This document shows, piece by piece, positions 6,798 through 56,060 of a DNA stretch of 64,000 nucleotides. A program made the position numbers and the translations under genes. Position 1 is the stretch's first letter. Every line of letters starts with the position of its first letter. The notes beneath the pieces were generated by a model. That model ran no database searches. It had not been told where the DNA came from and was given only the letters and a program-made list of their open reading frames with translations. Source of the DNA: Syntrophales bacterium (GTDB lineage: Bacteria > Desulfobacterota > Syntrophia > Syntrophales > UBA2210); contig CAXXKT010000001.1 of NCBI GenBank assembly GCA_963662405.2, forward strand, positions 2,624,001 to 2,688,000. Reading direction: 5' to 3'.

Positions 6798-7140
6798 GTT
6801 AAGTATTACTGAAAGCAATCTCATAATATTGCTTCAATCGTAATTCTATCAATTACAGGAAGAATGGCGCAGCAAAACATCTGTGCCGCCCCTCTTGCAG
6901 TACAAGTCTCACCTTTTACCAATCCTTAAGGCAGTCTCAGGGGAAAATAACCAATTACCATTTGAAAGTCTCGACGAAAAACTTCTTGACATGACACTGC
7001 CATAGAGTTACGTGGTACAACATGTTTCATTGAAATACCTGTATTATATCTGTTTGTGAATGGCTATAACCAGGAGATGAATATGGTCTGATTATCAAAG
7101 CCCTGTGTCTAATATACAAGAGATGGGGCTTTTGTTTTTT
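6798..7140 (+). repeat. Module leader copy A
   Basis: GTTAAGTATTAC..TACAGGAAGAAT..TTGACA(6986)..ATGGTCTGATTATCAAAGCCC..GGGCTTTTGTTTT. Confidence 0.85.
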
Positions 7141-7241
7141 CCCGCGCGTTTTAATTAATGACACGATTATCAAATCGAAAGCCAATTTTATAATTTATAC
7201 TTCAATCTTTTGGTATTTATTAAAACCATAACAATACCGCG

Positions 7242-7970
7242 ATGTGTGCTGATAAACCCCAAAAACCAATTGCTAAATATGGCAACCATATTACAATTGT
7301 GACTAACAAAAATGGAACATCGTACATTGCCAATATTGAGGCAGAGTATAGGTCCGCACACCAATTAATAAACGCAGCCCGAGTCATGGTTAACTCAGCA
7401 AATGCAATAGATGATGACACTCAGAGCCACTACCAACTGATGGCATACATATACGGGGCAATTATTTTGTCCTATACATCACTCGAAGCCACCCTAAATG
7501 AAATCCTTCACTTGGAGGCACTAAAACCAAACAGCCCGCTTAGTGAAGCAGAAAGAAAAGTATTCTACACCATTGTGAATGAGGGACTGGAAGCTCGTGG
7601 CAGAACCAATACATTGGAGCGATATAATTTGTTGCTGCGCATAATGAACAAGCAGGAAATGGAGGAAGACAGTGCTCCCTATCAGGCAGCAAATCTCGTT
7701 CGCCTTTTACGAAATAAGCTGATTCATCCAATACCCGGGAGAGTGGTAACATTAAGTGAAACAAATGACTTCGATTACTCGACACAGCAAGATATAGTCA
7801 AAAAACTAAGAAGCCATCTCAAGCTTGGCGAAGAGGCTACGTTCCCCTCTGACGTGCTCACAAGGGTTTGTGCCTCATGGGCCGTTAATTCTTGCGAAGC
7901 TTTTCTGCATAAGTTTGTTGTTTCATCAGGGATAAATCCGGGGTTCCACACAGGGCCGAAACGAAAATGA
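7242..7970 (+). CDS. HEPN-like protein
   Basis: Helical, LEA.LNE and RNKLIH (RxxxxH) motif. Confidence 0.6.
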   Translation: MCADKPQKPIAKYGNHITIVTNKNGTSYIANIEAEYRSAHQLINAARVMVNSANAIDDDTQSHYQLMAYIYGAIILSYTSLEATLNEILHLEALKPNSPLSEAERKVFYTIVNEGLEARGRTNTLERYNLLLRIMNKQEMEEDSAPYQAANLVRLLRNKLIHPIPGRVVTLSETNDFDYSTQQDIVKKLRSHLKLGEEATFPSDVLTRVCASWAVNSCEAFLHKFVVSSGINPGFHTGPKRK

Positions 7971-8040
7971 AAAACTACATAAAGTACCACTCTACCCGAT
8001 TGTTATAAGGCCTTGTCGTTTTGCATTATTGAGGAAGTTT

Positions 8041-9959: not shown

Positions 9960-10257
9960 GGCAACCTCCTCTGTTGGTTTGCCGCCAGTCTATCATACCT
10001 TTTATAAATACGAAACATATTATGTTACATGGTACTAGATCACACATACGAAAATAGGATCAAGTATACAAGTTTACTTTGTTCTGATTACCAAAAAAAC
10101 GAACAATAAATCAACTTTAACTGACTCCCTCGATTACAGGAGAATCCCGTGAGAAAAACTATACCGGATATAGCCTTGCCTAGAGCTGGTCGGGCAAATT
10201 TGGACAGGTGCATAAGTGGGAAAGTTGCTCTATAGTGGACGTAAGGAGGAAAGAGAT

Positions 10258-10560
10258 ATGAGCAAGAGACCGCGGAGGAACCATGCACCGTCCTTCAAGG
10301 CGAAGGTGGCATTGGAGGCACTGAAAGGGGACCAGACGATCGTTGAGCTTGCCGAGCGGTATCAGGTACACCCGAACCAGATCACCACATGGAAGAAGCA
10401 GTTGATGGATCACGCATCGGACGTATTTGGCAAGGGTCATAAGGACAACCAGGGTCCGGATGTAAAAGAACTTCACGCCAAGATCGGACAGTTATCGATG
10501 GAGAATGATTTTTTATCACATGCGCTCGGTCGCATCAACGGAACGAGCGCAAAGCGATGA
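10258..10560 (+). CDS. IS3 transposase OrfA
   Basis: FKAKVALEA HTH. Confidence 0.88.
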   Translation: MSKRPRRNHAPSFKAKVALEALKGDQTIVELAERYQVHPNQITTWKKQLMDHASDVFGKGHKDNQGPDVKELHAKIGQLSMENDFLSHALGRINGTSAKR

Positions 10561-11387
10561 TCAAGAGAGAAAAGAGTGTGCCCATAACCCGTCAATGCGA
10601 ACTCTTGGAGCTGTCCCGATCGAGTGTTTATTACTCTCCGGTTCCGGTCAGCGCGAAGGATCTGGAGCTGATGCGTCAGATTGATGAGATTCATCTTCAG
10701 TATCCCTTCTATGGGAGTCGGAAGATTCGCAATGAGCTGTGGCAGAGAGGGTATGATATCGGACGTGATAAGGTACGTCGGTTGATGCGTCGCATGGGGA
10801 TCGAGGCGTTGTACATCAAGCCGAGATTATCGATAAAGCATCCCCAGCACCCGATATATCCGTATCTGTTACGGGGACTTGATATCATCCGTCCCAACCA
10901 CGTATGGTCTGCCGATATCACGTATATTCCCATGGAACGAGGGTTCTGTTATCTGGTAGCCGTTATGGACTGGGCGAGTCGGATGGTCCTCTCCTGGCGG
11001 TTGTCGAATACGTTGGACAGTGCGTTTTGTGTGGATGCGCTTGAAGAAGCACTCACCACGTATGGGCGCCCGGCTATCTTCAATACCGATCAGGGCAGTC
11101 AGTTTACCTCACAGGCATTCATCGATGTCCTTCGCTCTCATGATATCTCTATCAGCATGGACGGTCAGGGGCGATGGATGGACAATGTCTTCATCGAACG
11201 GCTCTGGAAGAGCGTCAAGTACGAAGATATCTATCTGAAGGCATACGGTTCAATGAAAGAGTTGAAGAAGGGGCTTACCGACTATTTTCAGTTCTACAAC
11301 GAGAAACGGTGGCACAATACTTTTGACAGAAAGACACCGGCTATGGTTTATTTTGAATCACTACCACAGGGACAGGCTGCGGCATGA
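10557..11387 (+). CDS. IS3 transposase OrfB (DDE)
   Basis: WSADITY, NTDQGSQF, DNVFIER. Confidence 0.92.
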   Translation: MIKREKSVPITRQCELLELSRSSVYYSPVPVSAKDLELMRQIDEIHLQYPFYGSRKIRNELWQRGYDIGRDKVRRLMRRMGIEALYIKPRLSIKHPQHPIYPYLLRGLDIIRPNHVWSADITYIPMERGFCYLVAVMDWASRMVLSWRLSNTLDSAFCVDALEEALTTYGRPAIFNTDQGSQFTSQAFIDVLRSHDISISMDGQGRWMDNVFIERLWKSVKYEDIYLKAYGSMKELKKGLTDYFQFYNEKRWHNTFDRKTPAMVYFESLPQGQAAA

Positions 11388-11790
11388 ACACAAACCCAGG
11401 GCAACTTCCCACTTATAAATCCCTGTTACCTGTCCAAAGAAACCGGACCACCTCTCCTGTCCTGTAACAAATCTTGCACCATTCACCTAATCTTTAGGAA
11501 CATTGCTTAAGAGATTCACCAATTACCCATTGAACATCTCATGGCAATTTCTCGTGCCAAAACATACCGGGATGGAGTTGATGATTAATAAACGTTTAAC
11601 ATGTCATATGTGTTTTTAATTACATGCAATGTTCTGTCGAGGGCATGATCATGATACTGATCATTATGACAAAGATGAGGAGAATAATGATGAGAAGGAT
11701 GAAAAAAATAAAAAGATCACCATGCAGTCCTGTCTCTCAGACTAAAAGATGGGGATTTTGTTTTTGTAAACAATTCCAAGAATAGTCTCT

Positions 11791-18054: not shown

Positions 18055-18358
18055 GCAGCCTCCTTCAAGGTGGAAAAATGCGGGACCAGAACGGAGAACA
18101 AACGAAACTTTCGACAGCTACGGCTTGGAAGCTACCTCTCTTTTTGAAGCCTGTCAATCATTTAGTACAGGGAGAAGGGCGCAGCGAAACACGAGCTCTG
18201 CCCCTGCTGCACCAAATCTCACGCGTTGCACCTTGTCATCACCATCGAGTGCGCCGAGAGCTCACCGATTGTTTATTCGAAGTCTATAAGAAGGATGGAT
18301 GCGAATAAATAGTATCTTTCAAACCATACTCATCAGCCATGATTAATTGAATGGTAAT

Positions 18359-18812
18359 GTTACCGATTGTTGACTTCACCTACCTGCTCAGAACAATCCC
18401 AAAAGAAAATCGATTATTACCATTCGAAAGTCTCGACGGAAAAGTTCTTGACACGACAGCATTATGGAGCTAGTGGTTTATATGGTTTATCGGTCTTGAC
18501 TGCTTTGTATATTTTTGTGAGCAGCTATAACCTGGAGGGGATTATGGCCTGATCATCAAAGCCCTGTTTCTCAAAAAGAGATGGGGCTTTTGTTTTTTGT
18601 GAGCAGCCCGGGAGAATATTGCAGTCACCAAGACAAAAAAGGGTATTATACAATTTCTGTATAATACCCCCTCATAAATTGAAGTGCTCTTTTTATATGT
18701 ACGTATGACAATGGCTTGCGATTGCACCCTTAATATGTTTTCGAGGGATCTTATACAGATCTACTAGCTGTGTTTCGTTTTTATACAGAAAACTGTCTAT
18801 TTAATGTTAGCC
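18359..18812 (+). repeat. Module leader copy C ending in attI-like site (GTTAGCC 18806)
   Basis: GTTACCGATT start, TTGACA 18448, ATGGCCTGATCATCAAAGCCC hairpin, TTATACAGAAA block. Confidence 0.85.
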
Positions 18813-18827
18813 AGCAGAGGATAGTTC

Positions 18828-19496
18828 GTGGAAGACATACTCAGCGATCAAGCACTGAAAACAATCCGTGATCGGTACTACGCCGGAGTCACCGCCGCTG
18901 AACTTGGCTTTGACTTCAGCAAAGGTGACGAAGATTCGCTCACTGGTGCGCTAGGACAAGCGCTTCTCACGCCATCCACATTGGTTACGACTAACGCCGA
19001 TACGCAATTTCGATACGCCATTTATCACTACAAGTTGCGCGGACGTGGTCCGAACGCTCCAGAAGCGGAATTAGGGGCAGACGGTATATTCCAGATTGAA
19101 GTCACTGATCGTGATGGAAAGCTGCTCCGCCGAAAAGGGCTTCTATTTCAATCAAAGAAAGAATGGACTGGAAAGGACTCTCTCTTAGGCAAGCAAGCGA
19201 AAAAGATGGCTAAAAAACCAGGGGCAGGTATCGTGATCGATTTTGGCCCGCAAGGCTACAATACATGTCCAGCAAAACTTGCAGCCCACGCAGAGGGTCA
19301 AAGGCATGATATCGATAAAAGGGAGTTTACGAGGCTGGCAAAGACTCTAGGTGACGAATTCGTTCGGTGTCGTGTTGGAGTCGAAGGGCTTTGGTACGAT
19401 CCCGACAGGGAACTTCTTATTGCTCCAGACTCTGATGAACCCGGCATGCACGTCATCGACGCTCGAGTTCAACGCCTAAGCGACCGAATTGGCTAA
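18828..19496 (+). CDS. Gene cassette: PD-(D/E)xK nuclease-like protein
   Basis: E..LGAD...LFQSKK motif; stop overlaps attC. Confidence 0.65.
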   Translation: MEDILSDQALKTIRDRYYAGVTAAELGFDFSKGDEDSLTGALGQALLTPSTLVTTNADTQFRYAIYHYKLRGRGPNAPEAELGADGIFQIEVTDRDGKLLRRKGLLFQSKKEWTGKDSLLGKQAKKMAKKPGAGIVIDFGPQGYNTCPAKLAAHAEGQRHDIDKREFTRLAKTLGDEFVRCRVGVEGLWYDPDRELLIAPDSDEPGMHVIDARVQRLSDRIG

Positions 19497-19547
19497 CAAG
19501 CAAATCCAGCGGACGGCTTTCAGCCGGCACTGATCCGTACGTTATGT
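19491..19547 (+). other. attC site
   Basis: GGCTAAC (complement of GTTAGCC) ... hairpin ... GTTATGT. Confidence 0.85.
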
Positions 19548-19557
19548 GGGAGAACCA

Positions 19558-20097
19558 ATGAAGACGAGATTGCTTTCTTTTATTAATAAACCTTGGTGGA
19601 GTTTTGTCGGATGTGCTTTGGCAATCTTTGCCTTCTTTGGGATTAATAGCGGCAATTTATCTGAAACATTCGGAAAATATGAATGGATGATAAGTGCCTC
19701 TAAAGGGTCACTAATTATTGGAGCCTTTCTATTTTCGATTCATGCTTATATTAGGGCAGAGAAAAATAGAAAAAACTTAATCCAAATCAAATCATCGACT
19801 TACGATGAAGTTTATAAAAAGTTCTCAGACACAATAAATTATGCAGTTGGAAGATACAAGGGGTATAAAGACAAGTTGGATCCTGACAATAGAAAGTATA
19901 CCACTGTTGGTGTCCATGAAATGATAAATGAAGTTAAAAGTGCTAGATTACAGCTTCTCTCAATTTGCGGTGATAATTTGAGATCTATATTATTGAATGA
20001 AGGAACAGACTGGCTAGATGATATAGATAAATTTGGGAGTGTCGCTCCTAACATTATTGAAAAGCTAGCTAAAAATGCATACAAAGATAGAGAATAA
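19558..20097 (+). CDS. Gene cassette: two-TM membrane protein, unknown function
   Basis: GGAGA RBS; between attC sites. Confidence 0.7.
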   Translation: MKTRLLSFINKPWWSFVGCALAIFAFFGINSGNLSETFGKYEWMISASKGSLIIGAFLFSIHAYIRAEKNRKNLIQIKSSTYDEVYKKFSDTINYAVGRYKGYKDKLDPDNRKYTTVGVHEMINEVKSARLQLLSICGDNLRSILLNEGTDWLDDIDKFGSVAPNIIEKLAKNAYKDRE

Positions 20098-20105
20098 TAA
20101 TCATG

Positions 20106-43983: not shown

Positions 43984-44026
43984 CTACAGACCGCAAAATA
44001 GAATAATAATATCATATGTTATCTGG

Positions 44027-44074
44027 GGACTTCTAATCCGTAGGTCCCGGGTTCGAATCCCTGCTGGCGTACCA
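44027..44074 (+). repeat. att core copy 2 (junction of elements 1 and 2)
   Basis: 3' 48 bp of tRNA-Arg. Confidence 0.95.
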
Positions 44075-44141: not shown

Positions 44142-44575
44142 AAACAAAAAGGCTCCTGACCTTCAATAGTATCCCGGACTTTTTTAAGATACCCTTCCAG
44201 ACGATCAAGTTGCTCTTCCATAAAAGCAAGAATGCACAGGGTTCTATGCGTTCGCTCTAACGGTGAGGGGTCAAAGATTCCGAAGTTAAGATCATGAAGA
44301 GTACTCACCAAGGCCTTCACAGGTTCTACCCCCCCCACATCAAGGCTTCTTCGATCCCGTCGCTATCGACTTCCAACCTCTCCAGATCCAATGAATTGAC
44401 TTTCTTCTTGTTCATAACTCATACCTCCGCCGTCCAAAAATATACAGAAGTTGTTTGAACCGTTTCATGTGTCCTTTCTCTCCAAATCCCGGCTCCGGGA
44501 TCTTCTCAAAAATACCAGGATCAATCTCAACAGAAAGCAAAAAACTAGGTGCTTTTAGCCCTACCGTGGTTTTTC

Positions 44576-44815
44576 TTGACATAATATCTTCATGGGGTTA
44601 GTAGGTTATCAGTTTCGTGATTTGAGGAATATTAAATGTATTTTTGAACAGCTTTAGTGTGGGGGGATTATGGTCTGATCATCAAAGCCCTGTTTCTCAA
44701 ATTGAGAGATGGGGTTTTTATTTTTTGTCATTGGATAGATTGAAAAGTTAAAACGGCGAAACAAAATTAATACGGGATGTCCTTGGTTATTAGGATCCCA
44801 TAAACATTGTTGGGC
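44576..44815 (+). repeat. Module leader copy E ending in attI-like CCCATAA-ACATT-GTTGGGC
   Basis: TTGACA 44576, ATGGTCTGATCATCAAAGCCC hairpin; 7-5-7 site resembling attI1 CCCTAAA-ACAAA-GTT. Confidence 0.85.
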
Positions 44816-44831
44816 ATGGAAGAGAAGAATT

Positions 44832-45269
44832 ATGATTGAGCACATCTTAATGGCCTTCATGTGGGTGCTCATCCCGGCCACACTCATCGCCACCCTCGTT
44901 CAAAGCGTACCTTGGACGGACAGAATGAAGAAGAACCTCCTGATGTTCTGTTTCATCCACCCTGGTTGGCTTTTCCCCGTAATCTTCCTTTCGGCTATAC
45001 ATATCGGTGGCTACGCAAGAACGGAGATATCCCCCATTCCGTGGCGCTCATTTTCACATGAACTCATGCTACACGACTTCGGTTCGGCTTGCTTCTCCTT
45101 CGCCACCGTGTCGACTGTCTCGTTGTGGTGCTTCTGGACGGGGGCAAACGCGTGGTTTCTTCATCACCCACAGATGGACAAAACGAAGAGGGTTATGGCG
45201 CATGTAATCAACTTGCTCTTCGGGCTCATTGTGACACAACCCGATAACCCGATTTACAGAATACTATAA
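44832..45269 (+). CDS. Gene cassette: multi-TM membrane protein
   Basis: Four hydrophobic segments; bounded by GTTGGGC/GCCCAAC. Confidence 0.7.
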   Translation: MIEHILMAFMWVLIPATLIATLVQSVPWTDRMKKNLLMFCFIHPGWLFPVIFLSAIHIGGYARTEISPIPWRSFSHELMLHDFGSACFSFATVSTVSLWCFWTGANAWFLHHPQMDKTKRVMAHVINLLFGLIVTQPDNPIYRIL

Positions 45270-45271
45270 AT

Positions 45272-45330
45272 GCCCAACAACAGGCTTGACGGCACGCGAT
45301 AAACCGCGCCCGTCAACCTGAGCGTTAAAG
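45272..45330 (+). other. attC site
   Basis: GCCCAAC..CAGGCTTGACGGCACGCG..CGCGCCCGTCAACCTG..GTTAAAG. Confidence 0.88.
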
Positions 45331-45349
45331 CTATAAGGAACAAGATGAT

Positions 45350-46102
45350 ATGAAGAGTCTTGGAGAACTCAATTTCTTGGAATACTTGGGACATGAGGAG
45401 CGTAACCTATTGAGCAGCATTGTCAACTGGAAGTCGGAATTCGACCTATTTTTCAATCTGGACAGAATATTTCAAGAACCACTCCGACGAATAACTGTGT
45501 CTTCTGGACCAGTGATTGTTTCCCAATTGTATCTATTTGTTCACTTTTATCTTTACTTTTCGGCAAGTTGTCTCTTTCGATGCCATCTTTCGGAGGCCTT
45601 TTCCTCCTTGAGAAAGGCCATTGATGCTTCTCTCTGTGCCTATAAGATGATTCTAAACCCAGAGAGCGAGCGCGCCTATTTAGAGCGGGACAAGTATTTT
45701 CAGTATATTAAGTCGAACATTCAAAGAGAAATCAAGAAAGATACATCCCTCTACCCTCTCGCCCACGAACTGATCTCCATTCATGACATGTGCAGCGAGT
45801 ATGGGTCGCACTCTGACATTAGCTCGTTTTTTCATCGGCTGGAACGGAAAGAAACAGAAGACGAAAAGAGCAACATGATCTTACTGTACTATTTTCAGTT
45901 TCCGAGAAACGAGGAAGAATTTCGATTCTACTACCTTTCCATGCTTCAGGCCTTCTACTCCATGTTCCTAATCTTTAAGCCATTCCTAAACGAGAACCTG
46001 AAAATAATAGACCCAAAGTGGGAATCAACTATTGATCATCTTGGTCCTTTGCTCAACAAACTAAGGAAGGCAAGCTATGAGAAATTCGGGAAGAACCCCT
46101 AA
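45350..46102 (+). CDS. Gene cassette: helical protein, possibly divergent HEPN-like
   Basis: LRKAID and CSEYGSH motifs. Confidence 0.65.
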   Translation: MKSLGELNFLEYLGHEERNLLSSIVNWKSEFDLFFNLDRIFQEPLRRITVSSGPVIVSQLYLFVHFYLYFSASCLFRCHLSEAFSSLRKAIDASLCAYKMILNPESERAYLERDKYFQYIKSNIQREIKKDTSLYPLAHELISIHDMCSEYGSHSDISSFFHRLERKETEDEKSNMILLYYFQFPRNEEEFRFYYLSMLQAFYSMFLIFKPFLNENLKIIDPKWESTIDHLGPLLNKLRKASYEKFGKNP

Positions 46103-46164
46103 CCAGTCGTTCCACCGGATCGGCGGGGAAAAGCAATCGCCTCCCGGTGAGCTCTTTATTAGCA
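46097..46164 (+). other. attC site with mutated R' (ATT)
   Basis: CCCTAAC..CACCGG..CCGGTGA..ATTAGCA; next cassette ends TGCTAAC. Confidence 0.75.
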
Positions 46165-46183
46165 AATTTAATGGAGTAGCAAA

Positions 46184-46864
46184 ATGATATGCCCACACTG
46201 CAATTGCAACTTTTGGGAAGACTGGACTGATTCAGATACACTTGTTTGGAATGATGAGAACATAGGGCAAGGTATCCAACATACTGCTTGCCCAAATTGT
46301 AATAGGCTCATTGTTAAAGTATATGAAGGAAAGGTTAATGTTCATGGTGAAGTGTTTGAAATAAATGATGATGACGAGTTGCCAGTTGATTATAGCGAGT
46401 TTTTGGTTTATCCGAATCAATCCAAATTAGAGCTTCCTGAAGAAATCCCGGAAAAATATAAAGCGGATTATATTGAAGCCATGGCCGTTGTTGAAATTAG
46501 CCCAAAGGCATCAGCCGCAATCAGTCGGCGTCTTTTGCAGAACCTCTTACAAGATGAGTTGGGAATTAAAGGGACAAATCTTTCAAGGCAAATCGATACA
46601 TTTTTAGAAACGCCCAACATACCTTCCCATCTGTCTAAATCTGTTGATGCTATCAGAAATATAGGGAATTTTGCTGCGCATCCGAATAAAGAAACAAAAA
46701 CTGGGGAACTAATCAACGTTGAACCAGGCGAGGCCGATTGGTTGCTTGAAGTTCTCTTATCTCTATTTGATTTTCAATTTATTCAACCAAAGAGAATTGA
46801 AAAGAGACGGAATGATTTAAACACAAAGCTGAGAAGCATGGGAAAACCCGAAATGAAGGGATAG
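46184..46864 (+). CDS. Gene cassette: DUF4145 (HEPN) protein with Zn ribbon
   Basis: CPHC, CPNC, SPKASAAISRR, RNIGNFAAH. Confidence 0.85.
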   Translation: MICPHCNCNFWEDWTDSDTLVWNDENIGQGIQHTACPNCNRLIVKVYEGKVNVHGEVFEINDDDELPVDYSEFLVYPNQSKLELPEEIPEKYKADYIEAMAVVEISPKASAAISRRLLQNLLQDELGIKGTNLSRQIDTFLETPNIPSHLSKSVDAIRNIGNFAAHPNKETKTGELINVEPGEADWLLEVLLSLFDFQFIQPKRIEKRRNDLNTKLRSMGKPEMKG

Positions 46865-46868
46865 TTTT

Positions 46869-46964
46869 TGCTAACCTAGCACTTCAAAAGAAAGCGAGGG
46901 CGGGGCGACCGTGCAAAATTGAATATCTGTATCGCCCTGACTTCTGGTGAGTTTACTGTTCGCA
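46869..46964 (+). other. attC site (degenerate)
   Basis: TGCTAAC..GGGCG..CGCCC..GTTCGCA. Confidence 0.65.
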
Positions 46965-46980
46965 GGAAAAGGTAACAAAA

Positions 46981-47700
46981 ATGTCTAGATTTTTAACAAC
47001 ATTTAGAGAACTTGAAAAAATTATACATTCTGAATACGCTTCTTTAGATTTAAAATGCTGGGAAGAGTATGAAATAGATAAAAAACATCCGCTTACATTT
47101 TTTACTGAAGAGATAAGAGATATTAGTCCAATTAATCCTTTTAATTGGTATGAATTTATCACAGAAATTGAATTCCTAAGTAAAGATTTAAAGTATTATA
47201 CGACTATTCTCTTTCTTTTAAGACCTTTTATAAATAACCCTTTACGAGAAGATAAAACATACTATCAAACGATTGAAGATAACAGATACATGAGTTATGT
47301 TAGTATGCTTTATCAGATTATTTATAATTATTGGGATAGACTGGGTGATTTTTTATTTTACTTCATTGAAACAGGGCTGAAGGAAAGAAATGTGTATTTC
47401 TCCACCGTAATAACAAGTATTTCCGAGGATTTTAAAGAATCAGTTAATTACCAAAAATTGTTGAAAATATATGTTGAGTATCTGAAAGAGCTTTTTGACA
47501 ATAGAAAAAACATTGTACATTACTTACAAATATCTGCAAAAATGTTTTCTGGAACATTTCTTCATCATAACGATGAAAAGAAACTTCTTGAAATGGAAAA
47601 AGAGAAAAACGGATATCCTGATTTTTTTCAAAAACACTTGGAACTAAGTTTGGAAGGATTTGAGTATTCTGTTAAACTTGTCAGTGAGTCGAAGACGTAG
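46981..47700 (+). CDS. Gene cassette: Cthe_2314-like HEPN protein
   Basis: YNYWDRLG, RKNIVH. Confidence 0.7.
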   Translation: MSRFLTTFRELEKIIHSEYASLDLKCWEEYEIDKKHPLTFFTEEIRDISPINPFNWYEFITEIEFLSKDLKYYTTILFLLRPFINNPLREDKTYYQTIEDNRYMSYVSMLYQIIYNYWDRLGDFLFYFIETGLKERNVYFSTVITSISEDFKESVNYQKLLKIYVEYLKELFDNRKNIVHYLQISAKMFSGTFLHHNDEKKLLEMEKEKNGYPDFFQKHLELSLEGFEYSVKLVSESKT

Positions 47701-47712
47701 ATTTTGATTGCC

Positions 47713-47767
47713 TGCTAACCACAAAATTCGGGGGACGGATTCCCGCCCCTGATTTTAGGCGTTGCTG
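47713..47767 (+). other. attC site
   Basis: TGCTAAC..AAAATTCGGGGGACGG..CCGCCCCTGATTTT..GTTGCTG. Confidence 0.8.
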
Positions 47768-47806
47768 ATTACCAATTGATCTTGCCCCGAAAAAGTGGAC
47801 ACCCCA

Positions 47807-48655
47807 CTAAGTTACACACGCTTTTCGTTCAAACTCAGCGGGAGAGCAATAATTCAATGATGAATGTCTTCTAACGCAATTATAGAAAACTTCGATATAT
47901 TCGAATATGCTCCCGCGAGCTTCCTGTCTTGTCTGATACTTCTCAAAATAAACAAGCTCCGTCTTTAAGGTATGGAAAAACGATTCCATAAGAGCATTGT
48001 CGTAACAATTCCCCGAAGAGTTCATGCTCTGAATAAAACCATATTTCTCCATCAGCCCCTGAAAAGCATAGCTGGTATATTGAGTTCCACGATCTGAATG
48101 AAACATAACACCAGCTTTGGGTCGCCGCTGCCTGATCGCCTTGTGCAAGGCATCTGCAAGAATCTTATGACTCAATCTGTTATCCATCGACCATCCAATA
48201 ATCTTACGATTGAAAACATCCAGGATCGCTGCCAGATAAAGCCAACCCTCTCTCGTCCAAATAAGGGTAATATCAGAAACCCACACCTTGTTGGCCACAT
48301 CTGTCGAAAATCTCCGATTTAAAAGATTATCCGCCACTAAAAACTCATGCTTGGATTTTTTGGTGGCCTTGAACCTGCGTTTCGTCTTTGCCTTAATCCC
48401 ATGACTCTTCATCAGGTGAGCCACTCGTTTCCTGCTACACTTAATCCCGTGGGCCTGAAGTTCCGCTGTCACCCTCGGGCTACCATATGTGCCGCGACCC
48501 TTTATGAAAGCGTCCCGAATATACATCAGCAACCGCTCATTCTCTCTCTGGCGGTCACTCTTGCTGTGTTTCCCCCATATGTAATAACCGCTCCTGGATA
48601 CCCCCAGCACTCGGCACATCTTCTTCACCGAAAATTCGGAACGGTGATTTTCCAT
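47807..48655 (-). CDS. IS3 transposase OrfB (DDE)
   Basis: WVSDIT, HSDRGTQY, DNALMESFF. Confidence 0.92.
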   Translation of the reverse strand: MENHRSEFSVKKMCRVLGVSRSGYYIWGKHSKSDRQRENERLLMYIRDAFIKGRGTYGSPRVTAELQAHGIKCSRKRVAHLMKSHGIKAKTKRRFKATKKSKHEFLVADNLLNRRFSTDVANKVWVSDITLIWTREGWLYLAAILDVFNRKIIGWSMDNRLSHKILADALHKAIRQRRPKAGVMFHSDRGTQYTSYAFQGLMEKYGFIQSMNSSGNCYDNALMESFFHTLKTELVYFEKYQTRQEARGSIFEYIEVFYNCVRRHSSLNYCSPAEFERKACVT

Positions 48656-48666
48656 GAACTCATACT

Positions 48667-48972
48667 TTACTTTGGGTGTTTCGAGAAGATGGCCAACGCT
48701 TTTTTTAAGATTTCCCTCTCCTCCCTTAAGCTCTCATTCTCCCGCCGCAACCGACGAAGTTCCTCCTCAGGTGCCTTCAAATGACCTTTCCCGGGAAAAG
48801 CTTGCTCCATGTCCGCCCGATATTTACGCCTCCACTGATGAAGCAGGTTTTTATGAACATTCAAATCCTTAGCTAGATCACTTACAGAACGTTTACCTTC
48901 ATCCATTAACCGAATCGCCTCATACTTAAACTCCCGATCAAAATACCGCTTATCCTTCCCATTAACCATGAC
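48667..48972 (-). CDS. IS3 transposase OrfA
   Basis: EFKYEA HTH, EREILKKA. Confidence 0.88.
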   Translation of the reverse strand, partial: VMVNGKDKRYFDREFKYEAIRLMDEGKRSVSDLAKDLNVHKNLLHQWRRKYRADMEQAFPGKGHLKAPEEELRRLRRENESLREEREILKKALAIFSKHPK

Positions 48973-49591
48973 ATGCCTCCTCGTTACTCTATGTCTATAA
49001 GAGAAACTCTTCGGTATGTCCACTAAATCGGGGGAAGACCAAATAGTAATCTGCTACGAACAGGCCCATTCAAGTTTTGTTTGTTACAGGAAGAATCGCG
49101 CAGCAAAAGTATTTCTTGGACACTCCTACGGCGATCCTTCCACTCTTCACCTACAAACACTCAGAACAATGCCATAAGAAATTCATTGATTACTGATTGA
49201 AGGTTTCGCAGTGAAATCTCTTGACAATACGTCATCATAGAGTTACCTAAATCGTGGTTTTGATCTTGACATTTTTTATGCTTGTGCTGGCTGTACCAAT
49301 TAGGATTATGATCTGATCATTGAAAGCCCTGTTTCTCAAAAAGAGAGATGGGGCTTTTTTGTTTTTTTGGGCAACTTAGAAAATATCGGGGTTACGTGAA
49401 CGCGGAAAAGAGTATTACATAGTTTCTGTATAACACACCTCAATAAACGAAGGTTTTCATAATAATCTTTGTATTACAGTAAGTTGTAATGATTTTTTCC
49501 GCAATTGAAATATGTATTACGTAGCTGTTTCAGCTATGTTTGGTTTTTATACAGAAACAATATAAACACTGTTGCTGCATAAGGAGTGACC

Positions 49592-50479
49592 ATGAAAATC
49601 CCCGTAAGCATAGAACCCGATGAAGAAGGTTATATTGGAAGAGAATGTCCAGTTTGTAAGAAATATTTTAAAGTTAAATTCGGTACTGGGTTGCATGGAG
49701 TGACTGATTGCTATTGCCCATATTGTAATCATAAAGATTCGCAAGATAATTTTTGGACAAGACAACAGATTGAATATGCAAAATCGATAGCCCTTAATCA
49801 AGTCACCAGTGATCTCCTGAAGAGCCTAAAAAAGTTAGAGCGTAGACCAAAACCAAATCAACTTATTTCTATCGGTATAACTGTCAAAGGACAACCAACA
49901 CCGATTATTTACTATTCCGAAGAAGAACTAGAGCAGAAGGTCACGTGTAATCAGTGTACTTTAGAATATGCTATTTATGGAGCATTTGGTTATTGCCCTG
50001 ATTGTGGCATTCATAATTCAAAGCAAATTGTATCTGCAAACTTTGATCTCATATTAAGAATTTTGGCATTATCAGTTAATGCGGAAGGTGACATCAAATC
50101 AAAGTTAATCGAAAACTCTCTAGAAGATGCAGTATCAGCCTTCGACGGTTTTGGCCGTGAACATTACTCAAGTGCATACCCCCAAATATCATTTCAAAGT
50201 ATATCGTTTGCTCAGACAAAAATTCTAACTGATTCCCAGGTTGATATATCTTCTGGCTTGTCTCCAAAGGAATGGGATTTTGTAGTGGAGCAATTTCAGA
50301 AAAGGCACTTGATAGCACACAAAATGGGTATAATCGATGACGAGTTTATAAGAAAAACTGGAACATCATCTTCTTTGGTTGGTAGGAAGGTTTCAATTAC
50401 AGAAGAAGATGTCCGAAAATTTATTTCTTATTTGTTGGTCATAACAGATAATTTACTTACAGGTATTCCACGCAGCTAA
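49592..50479 (+). CDS. Gene cassette: multi-CxxC Zn protein with C-terminal HEPN-like motif
   Basis: Four CxxC pairs, RHLIAH. Confidence 0.7.
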   Translation: MKIPVSIEPDEEGYIGRECPVCKKYFKVKFGTGLHGVTDCYCPYCNHKDSQDNFWTRQQIEYAKSIALNQVTSDLLKSLKKLERRPKPNQLISIGITVKGQPTPIIYYSEEELEQKVTCNQCTLEYAIYGAFGYCPDCGIHNSKQIVSANFDLILRILALSVNAEGDIKSKLIENSLEDAVSAFDGFGREHYSSAYPQISFQSISFAQTKILTDSQVDISSGLSPKEWDFVVEQFQKRHLIAHKMGIIDDEFIRKTGTSSSLVGRKVSITEEDVRKFISYLLVITDNLLTGIPRS

Positions 50480-50532
50480 CAACAGCATCCAGACCGACGC
50501 GCTACGTGCGCGGCTGATGCTGAGCGTTCGGT
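50474..50532 (+). other. attC site
   Basis: AGCTAAC..CAGCATCCAG..CTGATGCTG..GTTCGGT. Confidence 0.88.
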
Positions 50533-50545
50533 TTAGATAAAAACT

Positions 50546-51103
50546 ATGCCTCTAAATCATACATCTCAGTTTTCTGAATTAACAGACAAGCAATTTAACC
50601 TAATTGGCAAAATTGTGGTTGAATGGGCCAATGTCGAATTTATGCAAAAACTAATATTAAGCAGGCTTCTATTTTCGGCGGAATTCATTAGTCGGACATA
50701 TACAGATCGAATGAGTGCCGTGAGGATTCAGGACGCAATAAAGGAATCCGTTGATCTTCATCGTCACAGATACTGCGGAGAGATCATAAGTGAAGACATA
50801 TTGTCTGAAATTGAAAAAGTGAATAATGAAGTTCATGATGCAAGAGCACATAGAAATAGATTCGCACACTTTTGCTGGACTCGTAACACAGATGAAGAAA
50901 TTTTTGGTACAAATTTTTCTGCAGGTTTACCAGGTAGCAAAAAATATAGAAAATCCGACATTGTTATAACGAACAAAGAGTTGGAACAGCTCTATAAGGA
51001 ATCATATAATTTGGTGGATAAAATCAATCAACTCATTGAGAAGCTTCCAGAGATTGAGGAAGATGATTTAACAAAAAGACCAAAAACCGAACAACGGCAT
51101 TAA
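50546..51103 (+). CDS. Gene cassette: HEPN-like protein
   Basis: IG..VV.WA.VE, RNRFAH. Confidence 0.7.
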   Translation: MPLNHTSQFSELTDKQFNLIGKIVVEWANVEFMQKLILSRLLFSAEFISRTYTDRMSAVRIQDAIKESVDLHRHRYCGEIISEDILSEIEKVNNEVHDARAHRNRFAHFCWTRNTDEEIFGTNFSAGLPGSKKYRKSDIVITNKELEQLYKESYNLVDKINQLIEKLPEIEEDDLTKRPKTEQRH

Positions 51104-51148
51104 GGGAGGCGGCACAAAAGCCGCCGCGCCTTATGCCGGGCGTTCGAC
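51086..51148 (+). other. attC site
   Basis: ACCGAAC..CGGCATTAAGG..CCTTATGCCG..GTTCGAC. Confidence 0.88.
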
Positions 51149-51163
51149 ACTATAGGAGAAACG

Positions 51164-52723
51164 ATGAAAACTCTAAAATTACGAGATCTTCAGATAGGTA
51201 ATATTGATGCAAAAAATGAGCTTCTCACTGGTTCAGAACAAGAAATTGATTTTTTCCGCAAGGGCTTCTGTCTTCCACCTAATATAGTGCTCCAGGATTT
51301 TTTAGGTTCAAAAAAATATTATGTGACAGGCTTAAAGGGAATCGGAAAAACAGCACTCTTAAGATATATAGCACTTGAAGCTGAAAGACAGTTTGGTGCC
51401 ACATGTTCATTTATCTTGTTTAAGAGCGATGTAAAAGAGCAAGATCGTAAAGACATCTGTCGCGTCGCTAGGGCCGAATTAATTGAAAAAAATCTCGAAG
51501 ATTATGATGGAAATGATTTTGAAGTTGTTTGGAAATGGTTTTTGCATAGAAAGATAGTTGATACTATTCGAGAATGTAATTTAAAGTTATTTCAAGATGA
51601 CGACAATTTTAGAAAATATGAGAAGTGTGTAACCGCTCCAAAACTTGATGAAAAATCATCCGGGATTAAACGACTAATACCCAACCTAAAAAAGGGTTCT
51701 ATAGAAATTAGTGAAAATCCGAAGATTGGTTTGGATTTTGATTGGGAGGATAAAGGTAAAACTCGTGTTAAGTTTCATAGTCTAACCAAACAAGCTGATC
51801 AACTTTTTCAGGAATTAAGGCCAGCAGATGGACACCTTCGTCTGTTTTTAGATGAATTGGAATTAAGCTTAGGCTCCCAAAAACAGTATAAAAGAGATGC
51901 AACCCTGATCAGAGATTTGATTATAGCTGTTGAGCAAATCAATTCAGTTGCAAAAAAAATGAGATATAACTTAACCATCTATGCTGGAATTCGTTCTGAA
52001 GTTCTTTCCGCAATTGAATCAGTCGGTAAAGAAATAAACAAAATTATTGGTGATTTCGGAAGCCAAATTGTATGGCATCAGTCCGGTTCTGATAATGAAA
52101 ACCACCCGTTGCTCAACATCATTGTTCAGAGAATATCTATCTCGGAAAACACTAATAAATCAGAGCGTGGCAACCTAAAATCTATAATTTGGAATAAATA
52201 TTTTCCAATATCAATTCAGGGAATTAAGTCCGAGAAATATATCCTTCACAATTCATGGTATCGACCTAGGGATATGGTTCGACTTCTTAATCTGGCAAGG
52301 GATCAATTCCCTGATGTAAGTGGGTTCACTCAAAGAGTTTTCGATGGAACACGAAAGCAATACAGTCAAGAAAGCTGGATAGAATTAGCAGAGGAATTAA
52401 GTGTCAAATATTCTCAACAAGAATTAGTCGCCATTCAACAGATATTCAATGGATATAAAAGAGAATTTTCTTTTATAGACCTTCAGGGTCATATCGAAAA
52501 AAGGCGGAAATTATATCCTGCTGTTGATAAGGCTCTGGTATCACATGCAATTGGCGAAATATTAACTGATTTATACAATATTGGATTTGTAGGTAATGTA
52601 ATTTACTCGGGTAGGAGAGGAATTAGTCCTAAAATGCGCTTTAGCTTTAGAGGTGATCCCAATTTGATTATAGAAGAAAAGATCACTGTACATAAAGGTT
52701 TGTATTCCTTTTTTACATTATGA
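51164..52723 (+). CDS. Gene cassette: P-loop ATPase (Sll1717/FunZ-like)
   Basis: G..DA..E, GLKGIGKT, FLDELE, RPRD. Confidence 0.75.
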   Translation: MKTLKLRDLQIGNIDAKNELLTGSEQEIDFFRKGFCLPPNIVLQDFLGSKKYYVTGLKGIGKTALLRYIALEAERQFGATCSFILFKSDVKEQDRKDICRVARAELIEKNLEDYDGNDFEVVWKWFLHRKIVDTIRECNLKLFQDDDNFRKYEKCVTAPKLDEKSSGIKRLIPNLKKGSIEISENPKIGLDFDWEDKGKTRVKFHSLTKQADQLFQELRPADGHLRLFLDELELSLGSQKQYKRDATLIRDLIIAVEQINSVAKKMRYNLTIYAGIRSEVLSAIESVGKEINKIIGDFGSQIVWHQSGSDNENHPLLNIIVQRISISENTNKSERGNLKSIIWNKYFPISIQGIKSEKYILHNSWYRPRDMVRLLNLARDQFPDVSGFTQRVFDGTRKQYSQESWIELAEELSVKYSQQELVAIQQIFNGYKREFSFIDLQGHIEKRRKLYPAVDKALVSHAIGEILTDLYNIGFVGNVIYSGRRGISPKMRFSFRGDPNLIIEEKITVHKGLYSFFTL

Positions 52724-52734
52724 GTGTAAAAAAT

Positions 52735-52807
52735 GTCGAACATCAGCTTGGAGAAGGATACTCATTACGCTGCGCTTCATTCGCACCTCTCAAGCTGGGC
52801 GTGAGAT
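52735..52807 (+). other. attC site with mutated R' (GTG)
   Basis: GTCGAAC..CAGCTTGGAGAAGG..CCTCTCAAGCTG..GTGAGAT. Confidence 0.85.
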
Positions 52808-52820
52808 TTCGGAGGAAGAT

Positions 52821-53150
52821 ATGGCACTACCTAGCTATAAGGATATCGTCGAACTCCTTAAGAAGGGAGCAACGATTGAGGCTCAAGAAAAGATTATGGA
52901 GCTCCGCGAAGCAGCTCTTGCGCTTCAAGAGGAGAACATTAATTTAAAAAACAAGGTCTTGGAGCTCCAGGGAAAAGTTCGTAAATTAGAATCATTTGAA
53001 GGTGAGCCATGTCCTAAATGTCGAAAACCAGCTTGGGTTGTGGAGTCAAGCAAGCCGGACAGTACGCTTGGTGACCTAGGTGTTATCCGTCGAGTTTATC
53101 GCTGCACTGAATGCGGGTTCTCCGAATCACAATTGGTGACGCCAAAATGA
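52821..53150 (+). CDS. Gene cassette: coiled-coil + Zn-ribbon small protein
   Basis: Heptads then CPKC..CTEC; GGAGG RBS. Confidence 0.75.
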   Translation: MALPSYKDIVELLKKGATIEAQEKIMELREAALALQEENINLKNKVLELQGKVRKLESFEGEPCPKCRKPAWVVESSKPDSTLGDLGVIRRVYRCTECGFSESQLVTPK

Positions 53151-53151
53151 A

Positions 53152-53214
53152 ATCTAACCCCACGGTCAATCGGGACGCGCCAAAAGCGGCGCGCCCCTTA
53201 CCTTCACGTTAGGC
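53152..53214 (+). other. attC site
   Basis: ATCTAAC..GGGACGCGCC..GGCGCGCCCC..GTTAGGC. Confidence 0.88.
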
Positions 53215-53439
53215 TAAATTTTAAGTCTCATGCAATTATTACTTAATGTTAGCGTATTTTGACCCGATTATGCGAATCCAGTTTGTCGGTTACAATTGAA
53301 ATGGCAATGATCACACGGTTATTGTTGCCGCCGTGGCATGCCTTGCTGTTTGGCAATTTTTGGATAAGCAGGAAAAGGCAACCGTCACAGATGGTGGGCA
53401 ATAATCGATAAAATAGCGTATAGCCAAGCTTGGCGGAAT

Positions 53440-55935
53440 ATGAGTAACGATTTAATAAGAAACAACCATTACGTCCCTATTTGGTATCAAAAGAATTTCT
53501 TATCTTCAAAGAAAGCGGCTTTCCATTACCTCAACCTTTATCCGGATAAAATTGAATTACCTAACGGCAAAGTAAATTTTAAAAATCAGATATGTTGGCC
53601 ATTCTCTCCTAAACAGTGTTTCTATCAAACTGATTTATACACGACTTCTTTTCTGGGTTATCGAAACGACGAAATCGAACGTTACCTTTTTGGTAAAATA
53701 GATAGCGATGGATCAATAGCCATTAAAGCATTAATGGACCTGAATTATCGTTTATTCCATGACTACTTTCTCAAAGTTTTTGAATACATGGATATTCAAA
53801 AGCTTAGAACACCCAAAGGACTAACATGGTTAAGTCAAAAGTTTTCAATGATTACCCATAATCAGCTTTTGTTTGAGATGCAGAAGATACGAAGGCTGCA
53901 TTGTACATTATGGGCAGAAGCTGTGAAAGAAATTGTTTTGGCCAATAATTCCAAGATAAAGTTTATCGTGTCCGACCATCCAGTGACAGTCTATAATGCG
54001 GCTTGTCCGCCCAACTCAACTGAATGCAAATATCCAAACGACCCTAGAATTGAAATGCAGGGAACACAAACGATTTTCCCTCTGGATTCCAATCGATGTC
54101 TAATTTTAACAAATTTGGATTATGCTAAAAACCCCAGTTTGCAGAACCTTAAAAAATATAGACCAAATCCAAATCCTTTTCGAAACACAATGATCAGATA
54201 TGATAACATCATTAATGAGAGAGAATTATCAGAAGATGATGTTGCGCATATCAACTGGATAATTAAGTCTCGCGCATCACAATATTTAGCTGCCGAAGAA
54301 AAGGAGTGGCTATTCCCAGAAAACAGGGTTTGTCCCGATTGGGCCAAATGCGGTCAAGTGCTAATACCTCCCAGTAATAAGCTTTATAAATTTGGAGGTG
54401 AGATATACGTTGGATACGAAGATGGTTCATCTGCATACTTTGACCAATATGGACGAAGAGAACCAGAATCGGAATTTTTAAGGAAAAAGCAAAAAGCTGG
54501 AAAAATAGGAGCAAATGACCCTTGCCCATGCGGAAGCGGAAAAAAATATAAGAAATGTTGCAGAGATAAACCTGTTGATGAACGGCCCGCCAGTGACGTT
54601 CTAAGTATTCGTGAGCGCAACCTATTTTTTCTCGACATCGTTACAGGAATTTTGGGGGTGAATAGGAGCGGAGACTTAGACTGGGATGAGCTACGTAGAA
54701 ATTTAACCAATGAAAAAATTGCAGAGATATATAAGGCGGTCGCAGCATTATGGCCGCCATCTACTGATTTATTTGCACTTCTCCCAAGACCAGACTCTAA
54801 TGTCCTGAGAGCTTTGTTTACAGGTATAATTGACCCACGTGTGACGTATATAAGCATGGCCTGTTTTTCCTTTTATGCAGACGAGATTTTAGTTCAAAGT
54901 CCTTTTGCAAACCCACACAACATGAGGGAAGAATTTAATCCTATAAAAAACCCTGGGAAATATAGGGATGAAACAATAAAAAACCTGTTTTTCTTATTTT
55001 TAATAATTCCGTGGATTGAAATTGGCGTGATTAATTTATTCCCAGACCCGTGGAATTTTAATTTCGCATTGATGGAGACCGTTATGGAGGCAGCTGAAAA
55101 AAGGAAAGATTCGATAACCTTCGATGAAAAATCATTCAAACAAATGGAAAAATTGTTCTTTGAAGACTATAAACGAACTTTATTCACAATGCCGGATAAA
55201 AACCTTCGGGCTTTTATTCGCCATACATCTCAAGACCTCTCAGAAGAAGAAATATCTAAGCTTATCGAATATACTAAACGAATGAATGCTCAAGATCCGC
55301 TTGTGGATCTGAATCCTGATAAGCCAGGAAAAGAATCAAGCCAGATGCTAATATCACGCACAACTCCAAACATGGAAATGACAATGCTTCTGGCACAAGC
55401 AACTGGTTCAATGATAATAACAGACAATTCTTTCAGGTGGTTTGAAATATGCTCATCAATTCCTTACTACTATGGCCTCAGCAAAAACCCCTGGGCTAAA
55501 TTTGAAACCTTCGCATCTGATTATCCTGTTCAGTTTCCATTGATCGTTGAACAACTATCCCACATGCAGGAGCTAAAGAAATCAGAATTCATGTCTGTAA
55601 AGAGGGTGCTAAAACGATTGTGGAATTCCATTAATGCGGATCAGGCACCAGATAATGCTCAGATTGATCATTTGCAAGAGGAGTTTGATATCGCTCAAGA
55701 GGTAATGTCTAAATCAATCGAAAAATTGGTCCAAAAAGGTGAAAAGGCTACCGACACATCTCCTTACCCAAGGCCAATGAACATAGACGCAAAATTGAGT
55801 TGCAAAATATCACCGATTGGGCATATCAATAATTTGGTATATCGATTATTGATAAGCTATGCGGGACATGATAAGTACCTTAAATCGCTTCCATTGTCTC
55901 TGTATGTAGAATATGGAAACAAGGAGAGAGCCTAA
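53440..55935 (+). CDS. Gene cassette: DUF4238 + SEC-C motif protein
   Basis: HYVP.WY..F, SDHPV, GANDPCPCGSGKKYKKCC. Confidence 0.8.
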   Translation: MSNDLIRNNHYVPIWYQKNFLSSKKAAFHYLNLYPDKIELPNGKVNFKNQICWPFSPKQCFYQTDLYTTSFLGYRNDEIERYLFGKIDSDGSIAIKALMDLNYRLFHDYFLKVFEYMDIQKLRTPKGLTWLSQKFSMITHNQLLFEMQKIRRLHCTLWAEAVKEIVLANNSKIKFIVSDHPVTVYNAACPPNSTECKYPNDPRIEMQGTQTIFPLDSNRCLILTNLDYAKNPSLQNLKKYRPNPNPFRNTMIRYDNIINERELSEDDVAHINWIIKSRASQYLAAEEKEWLFPENRVCPDWAKCGQVLIPPSNKLYKFGGEIYVGYEDGSSAYFDQYGRREPESEFLRKKQKAGKIGANDPCPCGSGKKYKKCCRDKPVDERPASDVLSIRERNLFFLDIVTGILGVNRSGDLDWDELRRNLTNEKIAEIYKAVAALWPPSTDLFALLPRPDSNVLRALFTGIIDPRVTYISMACFSFYADEILVQSPFANPHNMREEFNPIKNPGKYRDETIKNLFFLFLIIPWIEIGVINLFPDPWNFNFALMETVMEAAEKRKDSITFDEKSFKQMEKLFFEDYKRTLFTMPDKNLRAFIRHTSQDLSEEEISKLIEYTKRMNAQDPLVDLNPDKPGKESSQMLISRTTPNMEMTMLLAQATGSMIITDNSFRWFEICSSIPYYYGLSKNPWAKFETFASDYPVQFPLIVEQLSHMQELKKSEFMSVKRVLKRLWNSINADQAPDNAQIDHLQEEFDIAQEVMSKSIEKLVQKGEKATDTSPYPRPMNIDAKLSCKISPIGHINNLVYRLLISYAGHDKYLKSLPLSLYVEYGNKERA

Positions 55936-56002
55936 CATCAGCTTGGAGAAGGATACTCATTTCGCTGCGCTCCACTCGCACCTCTCAAGCTGCGCGTTAC
56001 TG
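55930..56002 (+). other. attC site
   Basis: GCCTAAC..GTTACTG; near-identical to 52735-52807. Confidence 0.9.
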
Positions 56003-56060
56003 ATTACGAAAAGAAATATACTATCATTCGGTCCCAATTGGTTCCCTTGAGTACAGGAAG
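55996..56060 (+). repeat. Module leader copy G (5' fragment only)
   Basis: GTTACTGATTAC with TACAGGAAG 56 bp later, as in copies A and F. Confidence 0.6.

Follow-up and report, generated by a model that had tools for sequence, protein, structure and literature searches.

A composite tail-and-head repeat with integron cassette arrays and a candidate ribosome-gated leader in a prophage-satellite island of a Syntrophales bacterium

The window analysed here comprises 64,000 nucleotides (nt) from the 3.8-Mb genome of a Syntrophales bacterium (C1:2624001-2688000, C1 being contig CAXXKT010000001.1) and contains two adjoining elements, the first prophage-like and the second satellite-like, that are bounded by three repeats of a tRNA-Arg end. 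Both elements carry a repeated non-coding segment which an earlier reading of the letters alone (here the sequence-only reading) had taken for a single element, a leader present in seven copies, A to G, that heads defence modules. Our analysis shows that the repeat is a composite, made up of one unit's tail, the head of the unit that follows and, in between, mobile modules. The general picture that we regard as probable is that it marks stacked integron platforms without an integrase of their own, which would be loaded in trans and expressed via a ribosome-gated attenuator.

Parts of the repeat and the arrays behind it

The repeat is built from up to three parts. The tail, about 65 nt long (GTT..TGATTAC..CAGGAAG), lies after the last attC site of a cassette array, the junction is an insertion hotspot with CACCTAC at its end, and the head comprises, in this order, a TTGACA-N17-TA promoter, a Shine-Dalgarno (SD) sequence, an ATG-x-stop and a terminator hairpin. 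Tail, junction and head occur together in A, D and F, junction and head in C, the head alone in E and the tail alone in G. The following features belong to the repeat (HMM, hidden Markov model; IS, insertion sequence):

6714..6804, + strand: degenerate attC-like stretch 5' of copy A, by its likeness by eye to attC 24471-24561; fails the attC heuristic
6798..6925, + strand: copy A tail and junction (GTT..TACAGGAAG..CACCT); tail HMM, of which it is a training member
6962..7141, + strand: copy A head; -35 at 6986, ATG-GTC-TGA 7083-7091, hairpin 7097-7133, U-tract
10081..11765, + strand: degenerate copy B, made up of a tail (10081-10181), an IS3-family element (10182-11455) and a decayed head that runs to 11765
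18159..18381, + strand: copy C junction, with a 147-nt module inserted between two CACCT
18424..18601, + strand: copy C head; -35 at 18448, ATG-GCC-TGA 18544-18552, hairpin 18558-18591
20159..20587, + strand: copy D tail and junction, broken by an IS200/IS605 fragment (~20196-20508)
20630..20801, + strand: copy D head; -35 at 20654, ATG-GTC-TGA 20743-20751, hairpin 20757-20794; no attI
26500..26717, + strand: eighth partial junction; ..CAGGAGG and the first 108 nt of a 207-nt module, at the boundary of the prophage cargo
44557..44728, + strand: copy E head; -35 at 44576, ATG-GTC-TGA 44670-44678, hairpin 44684-44719
47761..49154, + strand: copy F tail and junction, broken by an IS3-family element (47777-49042)
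49196..49364, + strand: copy F head; -35 at 49221, ATG-ATC-TGA 49308-49316, hairpin 49322-49358
55996..56075, + strand: copy G, tail only, past the last attC

The head copies are about 71% identical, and a core profile matched A, C, D, E and F, all five of which are training members, at E values of 1e-35 to 1e-47, with no match at E<=10 on the reversed genome. The shared blocks and their order, as proposed by the sequence-only reading, were borne out; the assumption that all seven are copies of one kind was not, since their parts differ from copy to copy. Several details also had to be revised. Copy G, being a tail, heads no cargo, and copy B faces the convergent 3' end of AbiEii, lacks TTGACA and has extra bases that separate the mini open reading frame (ORF) from the hairpin. 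The start assigned to copy C, 18359, falls inside an inserted module (18234-18380), the C junction beginning at about 18159, and the SMC-like gene is divergent from this copy and not headed by it. What had been read as the GTT start of D, of F and of G is in each case the R' box of the last attC. Beyond the seven listed copies there is the partial junction at ~26500-26717, recognized in an alignment by eye and not a tail-HMM match; its module part is 94% identical, and a similar boundary is present at three other loci.

The cargo behind C, E and F consists, with little room for doubt, of integron cassettes. The window contains 12 attC sites with R''/R' boxes and a bottom-strand hairpin, with folds that vary and are weak in several cases. 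The 7-nt cassette core is complementary to its own R'' at all seven positions in six of the 12 sites, at six in three and at five in two, and the remaining site has a 1-nt indel. Run genome-wide, the attC heuristic recovered just 6 of 13 window sites. The attI sites were searched for with an HMM trained solely on six regions that follow an integron integrase gene (intI), its best reversed-genome control being 0.0097. In C, the attI core reads GTTAGCC, the complement of R'' in the first cassette, and in F, positions 49409-49573 share 94% identity over 165 nt with the DNA directly after a broken intI (C1:30595-30431). The probable attI core of E is shorter and has a low position weight matrix score (2.4); its GTTGGGC matches R'' GCCCAAC exactly. 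The attI regions and the larger cargo units are located as follows:

18635..18808, + strand: attI region of C, with crossover G|TT at 18806/18807 and an inverted repeat at 18641-18669; attI HMM E 5e-18
18807..20165, + strand: two cassettes of C; attC 19491-19547 and 20106-20165
20907..24469, + strand: Gabija genes GajA-GajB, which follow head D directly and do not form a cassette; PADLOC E 1e-224 and 4e-185
24471..26348, - strand: reverse-strand cassette DuOB-DUF488-DUF488 (PDC-M45-like); core G|TTCGGC at 26348, attC 24561-24471
44790..44811, + strand: probable attI core of E, by its likeness by eye to solo attI cores; crossover 44809/44810
44810..47767, + strand: four cassettes of E; attC 45272-45330, 46097-46164, 46869-46964 and 47713-47767
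49405..49573, + strand: attI region of F; crossover 49571/49572, attI HMM E 5e-32
49572..56002, + strand: five cassettes of F; attC 50474-50532, 51086-51148, 52735-52807, 53152-53214 and 55930-56002

No attI was found at A or D, and the cargo ORFs of A (7242-7970 and 8029-8742) lack attC. The earlier idea of a reusable expression and recombination platform fits C and F and probably E, where a promoter-leader, attI and attC cassettes come together. Its cargo labels fared unevenly: Gabija and AbiE were recovered; HEPN-like R-x4-6-H motifs are visible in several cargo ORFs, but DUF4145 is the sole HMM match; 'Ntn' and 'nuclease' found no match in Pfam, NCBIfam or PHROG. One cassette of E is PD-T7-4/DUF4145-like, and the window cargo also includes a PDC-M14A-like protein. 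An atlas search with the ORF at 7242 returned unnamed clusters, with a lead to HEPN only at 0.84. The inverted repeat of the attI region (18641-18669 and 49410-49436) shows compensatory changes across relatives and is possibly a site for IntI or a host factor.

The head as a leader and its relation to intI

The spacing of TTGACA-N17-TA is kept in 42 of 46 copies. The absence of -7T is common to the head and the rrn promoters of the host, the genome has a CarD-like gene, and a gene of this kind is linked with the absence of -7T from promoters. The hairpin, which has covariation in its favour, is paired to 92.8% with 28 two-sided changes, a value that was reached in 0 of 500 shuffles and lies above all slid controls, and it carries G-U pairs on the + strand. 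The features between promoter and hairpin were assessed on 49 homologues found by a covariance model, a few of them close to training members, with one start per homologue chosen in a 12-nt window. The start codon is ATG in 41, GTG in 4 and TTG in 3 cases and lies 15-22 nt 5' of the stem in 47/48 homologues; SD pairing reaches <= -4 kcal in 42/48 versus 18/147. An in-frame stop precedes the stem in 36/48 homologues, compared with 9 and 8 in the other frames, and where codon 3 is not a stop, a later in-frame stop follows in 17/29, compared with 3 and 5 off-frame. The distance from start to stem is fixed, and the encoded peptide is not conserved. When folding was blocked as far as +18 or +21 (in nt, counted from the AUG), the folding energy of the five window copies dropped by about half to three quarters, part of this drop being loss of the 5' fold.

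Because the SD sequence, the start codon, its distance to the stem and the in-frame stop are conserved, we lean towards the head being a ribosome-gated attenuator that works by occlusion as in ampC, or one akin to attenuators with short upstream ORFs. A sigma70-type promoter would fire, and by default the RNA would end at the hairpin and U-tract, with a plausible product some 110-115 nt in length. If the SD-AUG-x-stop, which lies about 18 nt from the stem, were occupied by a ribosome, the 5' arm of the hairpin would be covered and read-through permitted, into intI in the presumed ancestral arrangement and into cassettes or genes such as Gabija in the derived one. The host IntI would load attC cassettes at attI in trans, and accessory genes throughout the order would use the same head as a promoter that is both portable and regulated. 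For the cassettes, the head promoter, with its conserved motif and the terminator behind it, is a candidate cassette promoter (Pc).

No conserved antiterminator or aptamer fold was found in the leader; its 5' 60 nt are poorly conserved and have no specific structure (median z -0.2), and RNAalifold gives the terminator alone. Two further candidates were dropped: a palindromic operator at ATGRTCTGATCAT, whose right half intI-linked leaders and distant ones do not preserve, and an SD-sequestering 5' hairpin, which is not sequence-specific. The boxA-like motifs show just a loose likeness by eye to the rrn boxA of the host. Outside the family, the start-stop-terminator grammar has five matches with an SD sequence in the genome, and one of these is the intI leader.

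The genome contains intI at two places, an intact gene with catalytic motifs at C1:2211906 and a broken one at C1:31.6-30.6 kb; none lies beside the attI at C, E or F, and we infer that these platforms could be served in trans by the intact IntI. In the clade of intI genes that are at least 72% identical to the latter, the leader is present at four of the five loci with a readable upstream region, each time in the order promoter, SD-start-x-stop, hairpin, U-tract, co-oriented intI and attI; the fifth, L097, has no such leader upstream. The intI-linked leaders align with the head at the SD sequence, at ATG-RWC-TGA and at the hairpin, and their AUG lies 16-21 nt from the stem in 8/9 cases. The head and the leader of this Syntrophales clade of intI genes are homologous. 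Loci from relatives form a deletion series: leader, intI and attI in L160, L161, L066 and L067; leader, an intI remnant of 45-52 amino acids and attI in L163, L164 and L165; leader and attI without intI in L166-L168. A metagenome scan with attI only yielded 11 loci, nine of them distinct, with a head upstream in five of the nine, a tail-profile match past the cargo in three loci and intI within 1.5 kb in none of the 11. Because of this series and the metagenome loci, we consider loss of the integrase with retention of leader and attI to be recurrent. In a further head and attI unit of a relative (L171:14786-15724), the first gene encodes a tyrosine recombinase 33% identical to IntI.

The LexA DNA-binding domain was detected in 4 of 81 order genomes and not in that of the host, which has RecA and no full-length LexA. 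LexA is the usual repressor of intI (accessible text of PMC8876359); it is mostly missing from the order, and therefore an alternative control of intI is plausible. A bolder proposal, which we put forward as doubtful, is that the leader is a switch which senses translation and replaces LexA/SOS control of integrase and defence genes across Syntrophales, and that the segment from the TT of the tail to the G of attI is a mobile platform cassette, excised by IntI as a circle and re-inserted at attC or attG. Such a circle would carry a whole attI together with a regulated promoter and could, on an equally tentative view, seed new points of loading and expression in arrays, prophages and satellites.

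Spread of the head and competing explanations

The repeat extends beyond the two elements in which the sequence-only reading described it: the genome holds 54 head copies at E<1e-5, their neighbourhoods being lower in GC (<50% GC in 27/54 versus 368/2000 random ones). By BLAST, the F region is present in 27 of 36 same-family genomes. With the covariance model, 68 of 121 order genomes and 16 of 150 phylum genomes were found to have the leader. Both counts include the host genome, rest on the top candidates per genome with rough E-values and contain a few weak, chance-like matches. Named records with the motif belong mostly to Syntrophales/Syntrophaceae. The sequence-only reading did not recognise the repeat as a known IS, MITE, CRISPR or riboswitch. 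There is no Rfam match above the gathering score; in the window Rfam finds only tRNAs, for the leader only sub-threshold matches, and in three loci none at E<=0.05. A literature search, with most subscription papers outside its scope, did not find the element under topics that included integrons, solo attI, upstream ORFs (uORFs), satellites, IS110 and attC clusters that lack an integron integrase (CALINs).

Several points weigh against the platform and attenuator reading. In the close family, mutations of the stop mostly lose it (of 83, 70 are TGA, 2 TAA and 11 other), and the covariance model, having been trained with SD-ATG-x-TGA, favours such matches; the start was chosen by hand within its 12-nt window. 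The intI-linked leaders match the head profile just at E~1e-4 or below detection, and no window-type head (E<1e-20) was seen directly 5' of a full intI. An attI core scores within 300 nt of just 8 of 51 genome heads, as compared with 28 of 2000 controls; the attI HMM adds two or three. Of the eight anchored tails from loci of other genomes, just two passed the attC heuristic, with more being attC-like by eye, and the loci with the two native intI arrays of the host gave no tail match. An empty attI|tail site was found neither in 301 genomes nor in viral sequences or metagenomes. Finally, the attI region may contain a second, constitutive promoter.

The alternatives account for part of this picture each. 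A leader specific to phage defence that is exchanged between the prophage and the satellite of the window would agree with five heads in two cargo regions, with Gabija, PD-T7-4-like and PDC-M14A-like cargo and with the copies in related prophages; indeed, attI units and prophage copies are rich in defence genes (Gabija, ThsB-like TIR, PD-Lambda-5, SIR2, Shedu, PDC-S31). Against it stand the number of copies in the genome, the two viral contigs that are the only ones to match and the neighbours. Among 50 genome neighbours tested, a set from a simple ORF caller that includes some second or opposite-strand ORFs, 16 have signalling, transport, metabolic or secreted domains versus about 10 that are defence-like; of 41 distant neighbours, 6 are defence-like, 21 are other and 14 have no match. 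Most homologues thus head signalling, transport, metabolic or secreted genes, and the claimed specificity for defence modules is not supported. Nor is the proposed exchange between prophage and satellite, as the nearest relative of each window head lies outside the window. This explanation is largely refuted, and we give it almost no weight. Just as implausible to us is that the repeat is a miniature inverted-repeat transposable element (MITE) or a decayed IS end. It is dispersed, multi-copy and IS-flanked and has small near-identical modules inside; terminal inverted repeats and a target duplication were, however, not seen for the head, its copies are ~71% identical under functional constraint, and the IS110 copies and small modules are insertions into the repeat.

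The head could also be a multi-copy small RNA or minigene that acts in trans, the hairpin being merely its terminator and the downstream genes having promoters of their own. Promoter and strong terminator would indeed make a self-contained unit of ~110-115 nt in 54 copies, and there is a weak, sub-threshold likeness to NsiR1 (28 bits versus a gathering score of 39). The poor conservation and lack of specific structure of the 5' 60 nt, the fixed distance from start to stem while the peptide varies, and the orientation of the next long ORF (same strand in 42 of 54 cases, opposite in 6, none in 6) make this improbable. We judge it slightly less probable still that the head is a portable promoter which shuffles genes by homologous recombination between copies, with an incidental link to attI, as promoter early stem-loops (PeSLs) of T4-like phages do (accessible text of PMC2839356). 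Most head copies lack attI, and at C1:433080-437484 (L035) four tandem modules of head and gene combine near-identical heads with unrelated genes, which speaks for such shuffling; yet attI, attC, the tail and the deletion series of intI are left unexplained, and PeSL stem-loops lie mostly within or 5' of the promoter, with no uORF described in the portions of PMC2839356 at hand. For the copies without attI, recombination of this kind may nevertheless be true.

The joint, related systems and the surrounding elements

The tail lies 3' of attC in 7 of 17 anchored genome copies (six more could not be anchored) and likewise in D and F, which were tested separately, as compared with 43 of 600 random GTT. 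Compact units of head, attI, cargo and tail occur in L168, L172, L173 and L235, and the tail behaves like a 3'-conserved segment and may represent the right half of attI. A loose attI|tail pattern matched 25 of 301 genomes, on inspection by chance or as attC-tail; five viral pattern matches were unrelated, and metagenomes gave 0. Between CAGGAAG and CACCTAC of the joint sit interchangeable modules. An IS110 element encoding 322 amino acids (C1:305121-306352 and four more copies) ends in 5/5 cases at CT|AC before head-type sequence; its left end has segments that match target and donor and are putative bridge-RNA guides, read by eye under the rules in the accessible text of PMC11208160. An element with two recombinases also lands in the joint and once fuses a tail directly to attI. 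IS110 and other small elements land at the joint, and this accounts for the variable middle blocks of the sequence-only reading. Between CAGGAAGGA and CACCTAC we also observed a non-coding module of 207 nt, with four full copies 99-100% identical (window 26610-26717; C1:1944506, 1952001 and 316488; C2:337366), which has no Rfam match and is possibly a non-autonomous IS110-like element.

In the E. coli ampC attenuator, an intrinsic terminator follows closely on an SD sequence and a minimal ORF of the start-stop type, and ribosome occupancy has been proposed to prevent termination. A start-stop ORF before a terminator is common to it and the heads, a likeness by description only; the heads differ in being a dispersed family with ORFs of 2-5 codons that lies ahead of dozens of genes and of intI. 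In the attenuators of ARE-ABCF genes, a very short uORF (MRI in cplR, MIN in vmlR) is needed for read-through of the terminator under translation stress; to judge from the available part of PMC10201436, they use alternative RNA folds before one gene type, whereas the head has no conserved antiterminator fold. PeSL cassettes likewise place shared, repeated promoter and stem-loop units before variable genes and, as far as the accessible text goes, have no attI/attC (PMC2839356); by analogy, they can be regarded as a functional analogue of the heads without attI. The IS110 members that target repetitive extragenic palindromic (REP) sequences (IS621, ISPpu9/ssr9; accessible parts of PMC11208160 and 10.1101/2025.01.17.633520) share with ours the landing in one dispersed repeat and putative guides that match the target, which is here the tail/head joint of an integron-derived unit and not REP.

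With complete integrons, the window arrays would share loading by attI x attC; they differ in having no adjacent intI. Integrons are described as carrying defence-rich promoterless cassettes (10.1101/2024.07.02.601686, accessible text). Compared with the integron platform of PMC8876359, as far as its text is available, intI lies upstream and is co-oriented, a terminator separates promoter and array, and the lineage is mostly without LexA; the available portions of PMC8876359 and 10.1101/2024.07.02.601686 make no mention of a start-stop attenuator of transcription at intI or Pc. CALINs are attC clusters without a neighbouring intI and are thought to arise by loss of intI (10.1101/2022.09.11.507474, accessible part). 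The window arrays meet this definition, but differ in several respects: they have retained attI and the promoter-leader of intI, the array ends in a conserved tail, units follow one another in tandem within hotspots of prophage and satellite, and the loss of intI has left visible intermediates. The sites in the window are attI homologues, not attG sites. The loci display a route from integron to CALIN on which promoter-leader and attI survive, so that 'orphan' arrays at such hotspots of prophages and satellites may still be open to loading and under regulation. The putative start-stop attenuator, a family that Rfam does not contain, occurs in more than half of the order genomes that were searched and stands before many kinds of accessory genes; it would be a testable answer to the question how a lineage mostly without LexA controls integrase and defence cassettes. 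If read-through responds to the state of the ribosome, this would couple costly defence genes to the status of translation.

The two elements of the island are delimited by a 49-nt repeat, the end of tRNA-Arg, at 2371, 44026 and 63234:

2371..2419, + strand: att core (3' part of tRNA-Arg; 49-nt repeat), left end of the prophage-like element
44026..44074, + strand: att core between prophage-like and satellite-like elements; adjoining integrase 42862-43983
63234..63282, + strand: att core, right end of the satellite-like element; adjoining integrase 61813-63003

The prophage-like element encodes terminase, primase and integrase; at 27259-41416 it has terminase subunits, two methylases and the primase, and no capsid or portal match was obtained among the scanned ORFs of this region. 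The satellite-like element encodes a primase, a small terminase and an integrase, beside which lies a sigma54-type AAA+ activator-like protein (60440-61807). A repeat of 164 nt (2372-2535 and 63235-63398) stands at either end of the island formed by the two elements and duplicates tRNA-His. Prophage segments related to the window element are present elsewhere in the genome: window 2651-6972, with prophage-linked cargo comprising an AMP-binding enzyme and an ATPase_gene1-like ORF, is 98.8% identical to C1:228600-232925 beside another tRNA-Arg. One of the 11 spacers in an array of clustered regularly interspaced short palindromic repeats (CRISPR; C3:309057-309817) matches C1:1938486-1938514 with 93% identity over 29 nt, next to a related prophage region.

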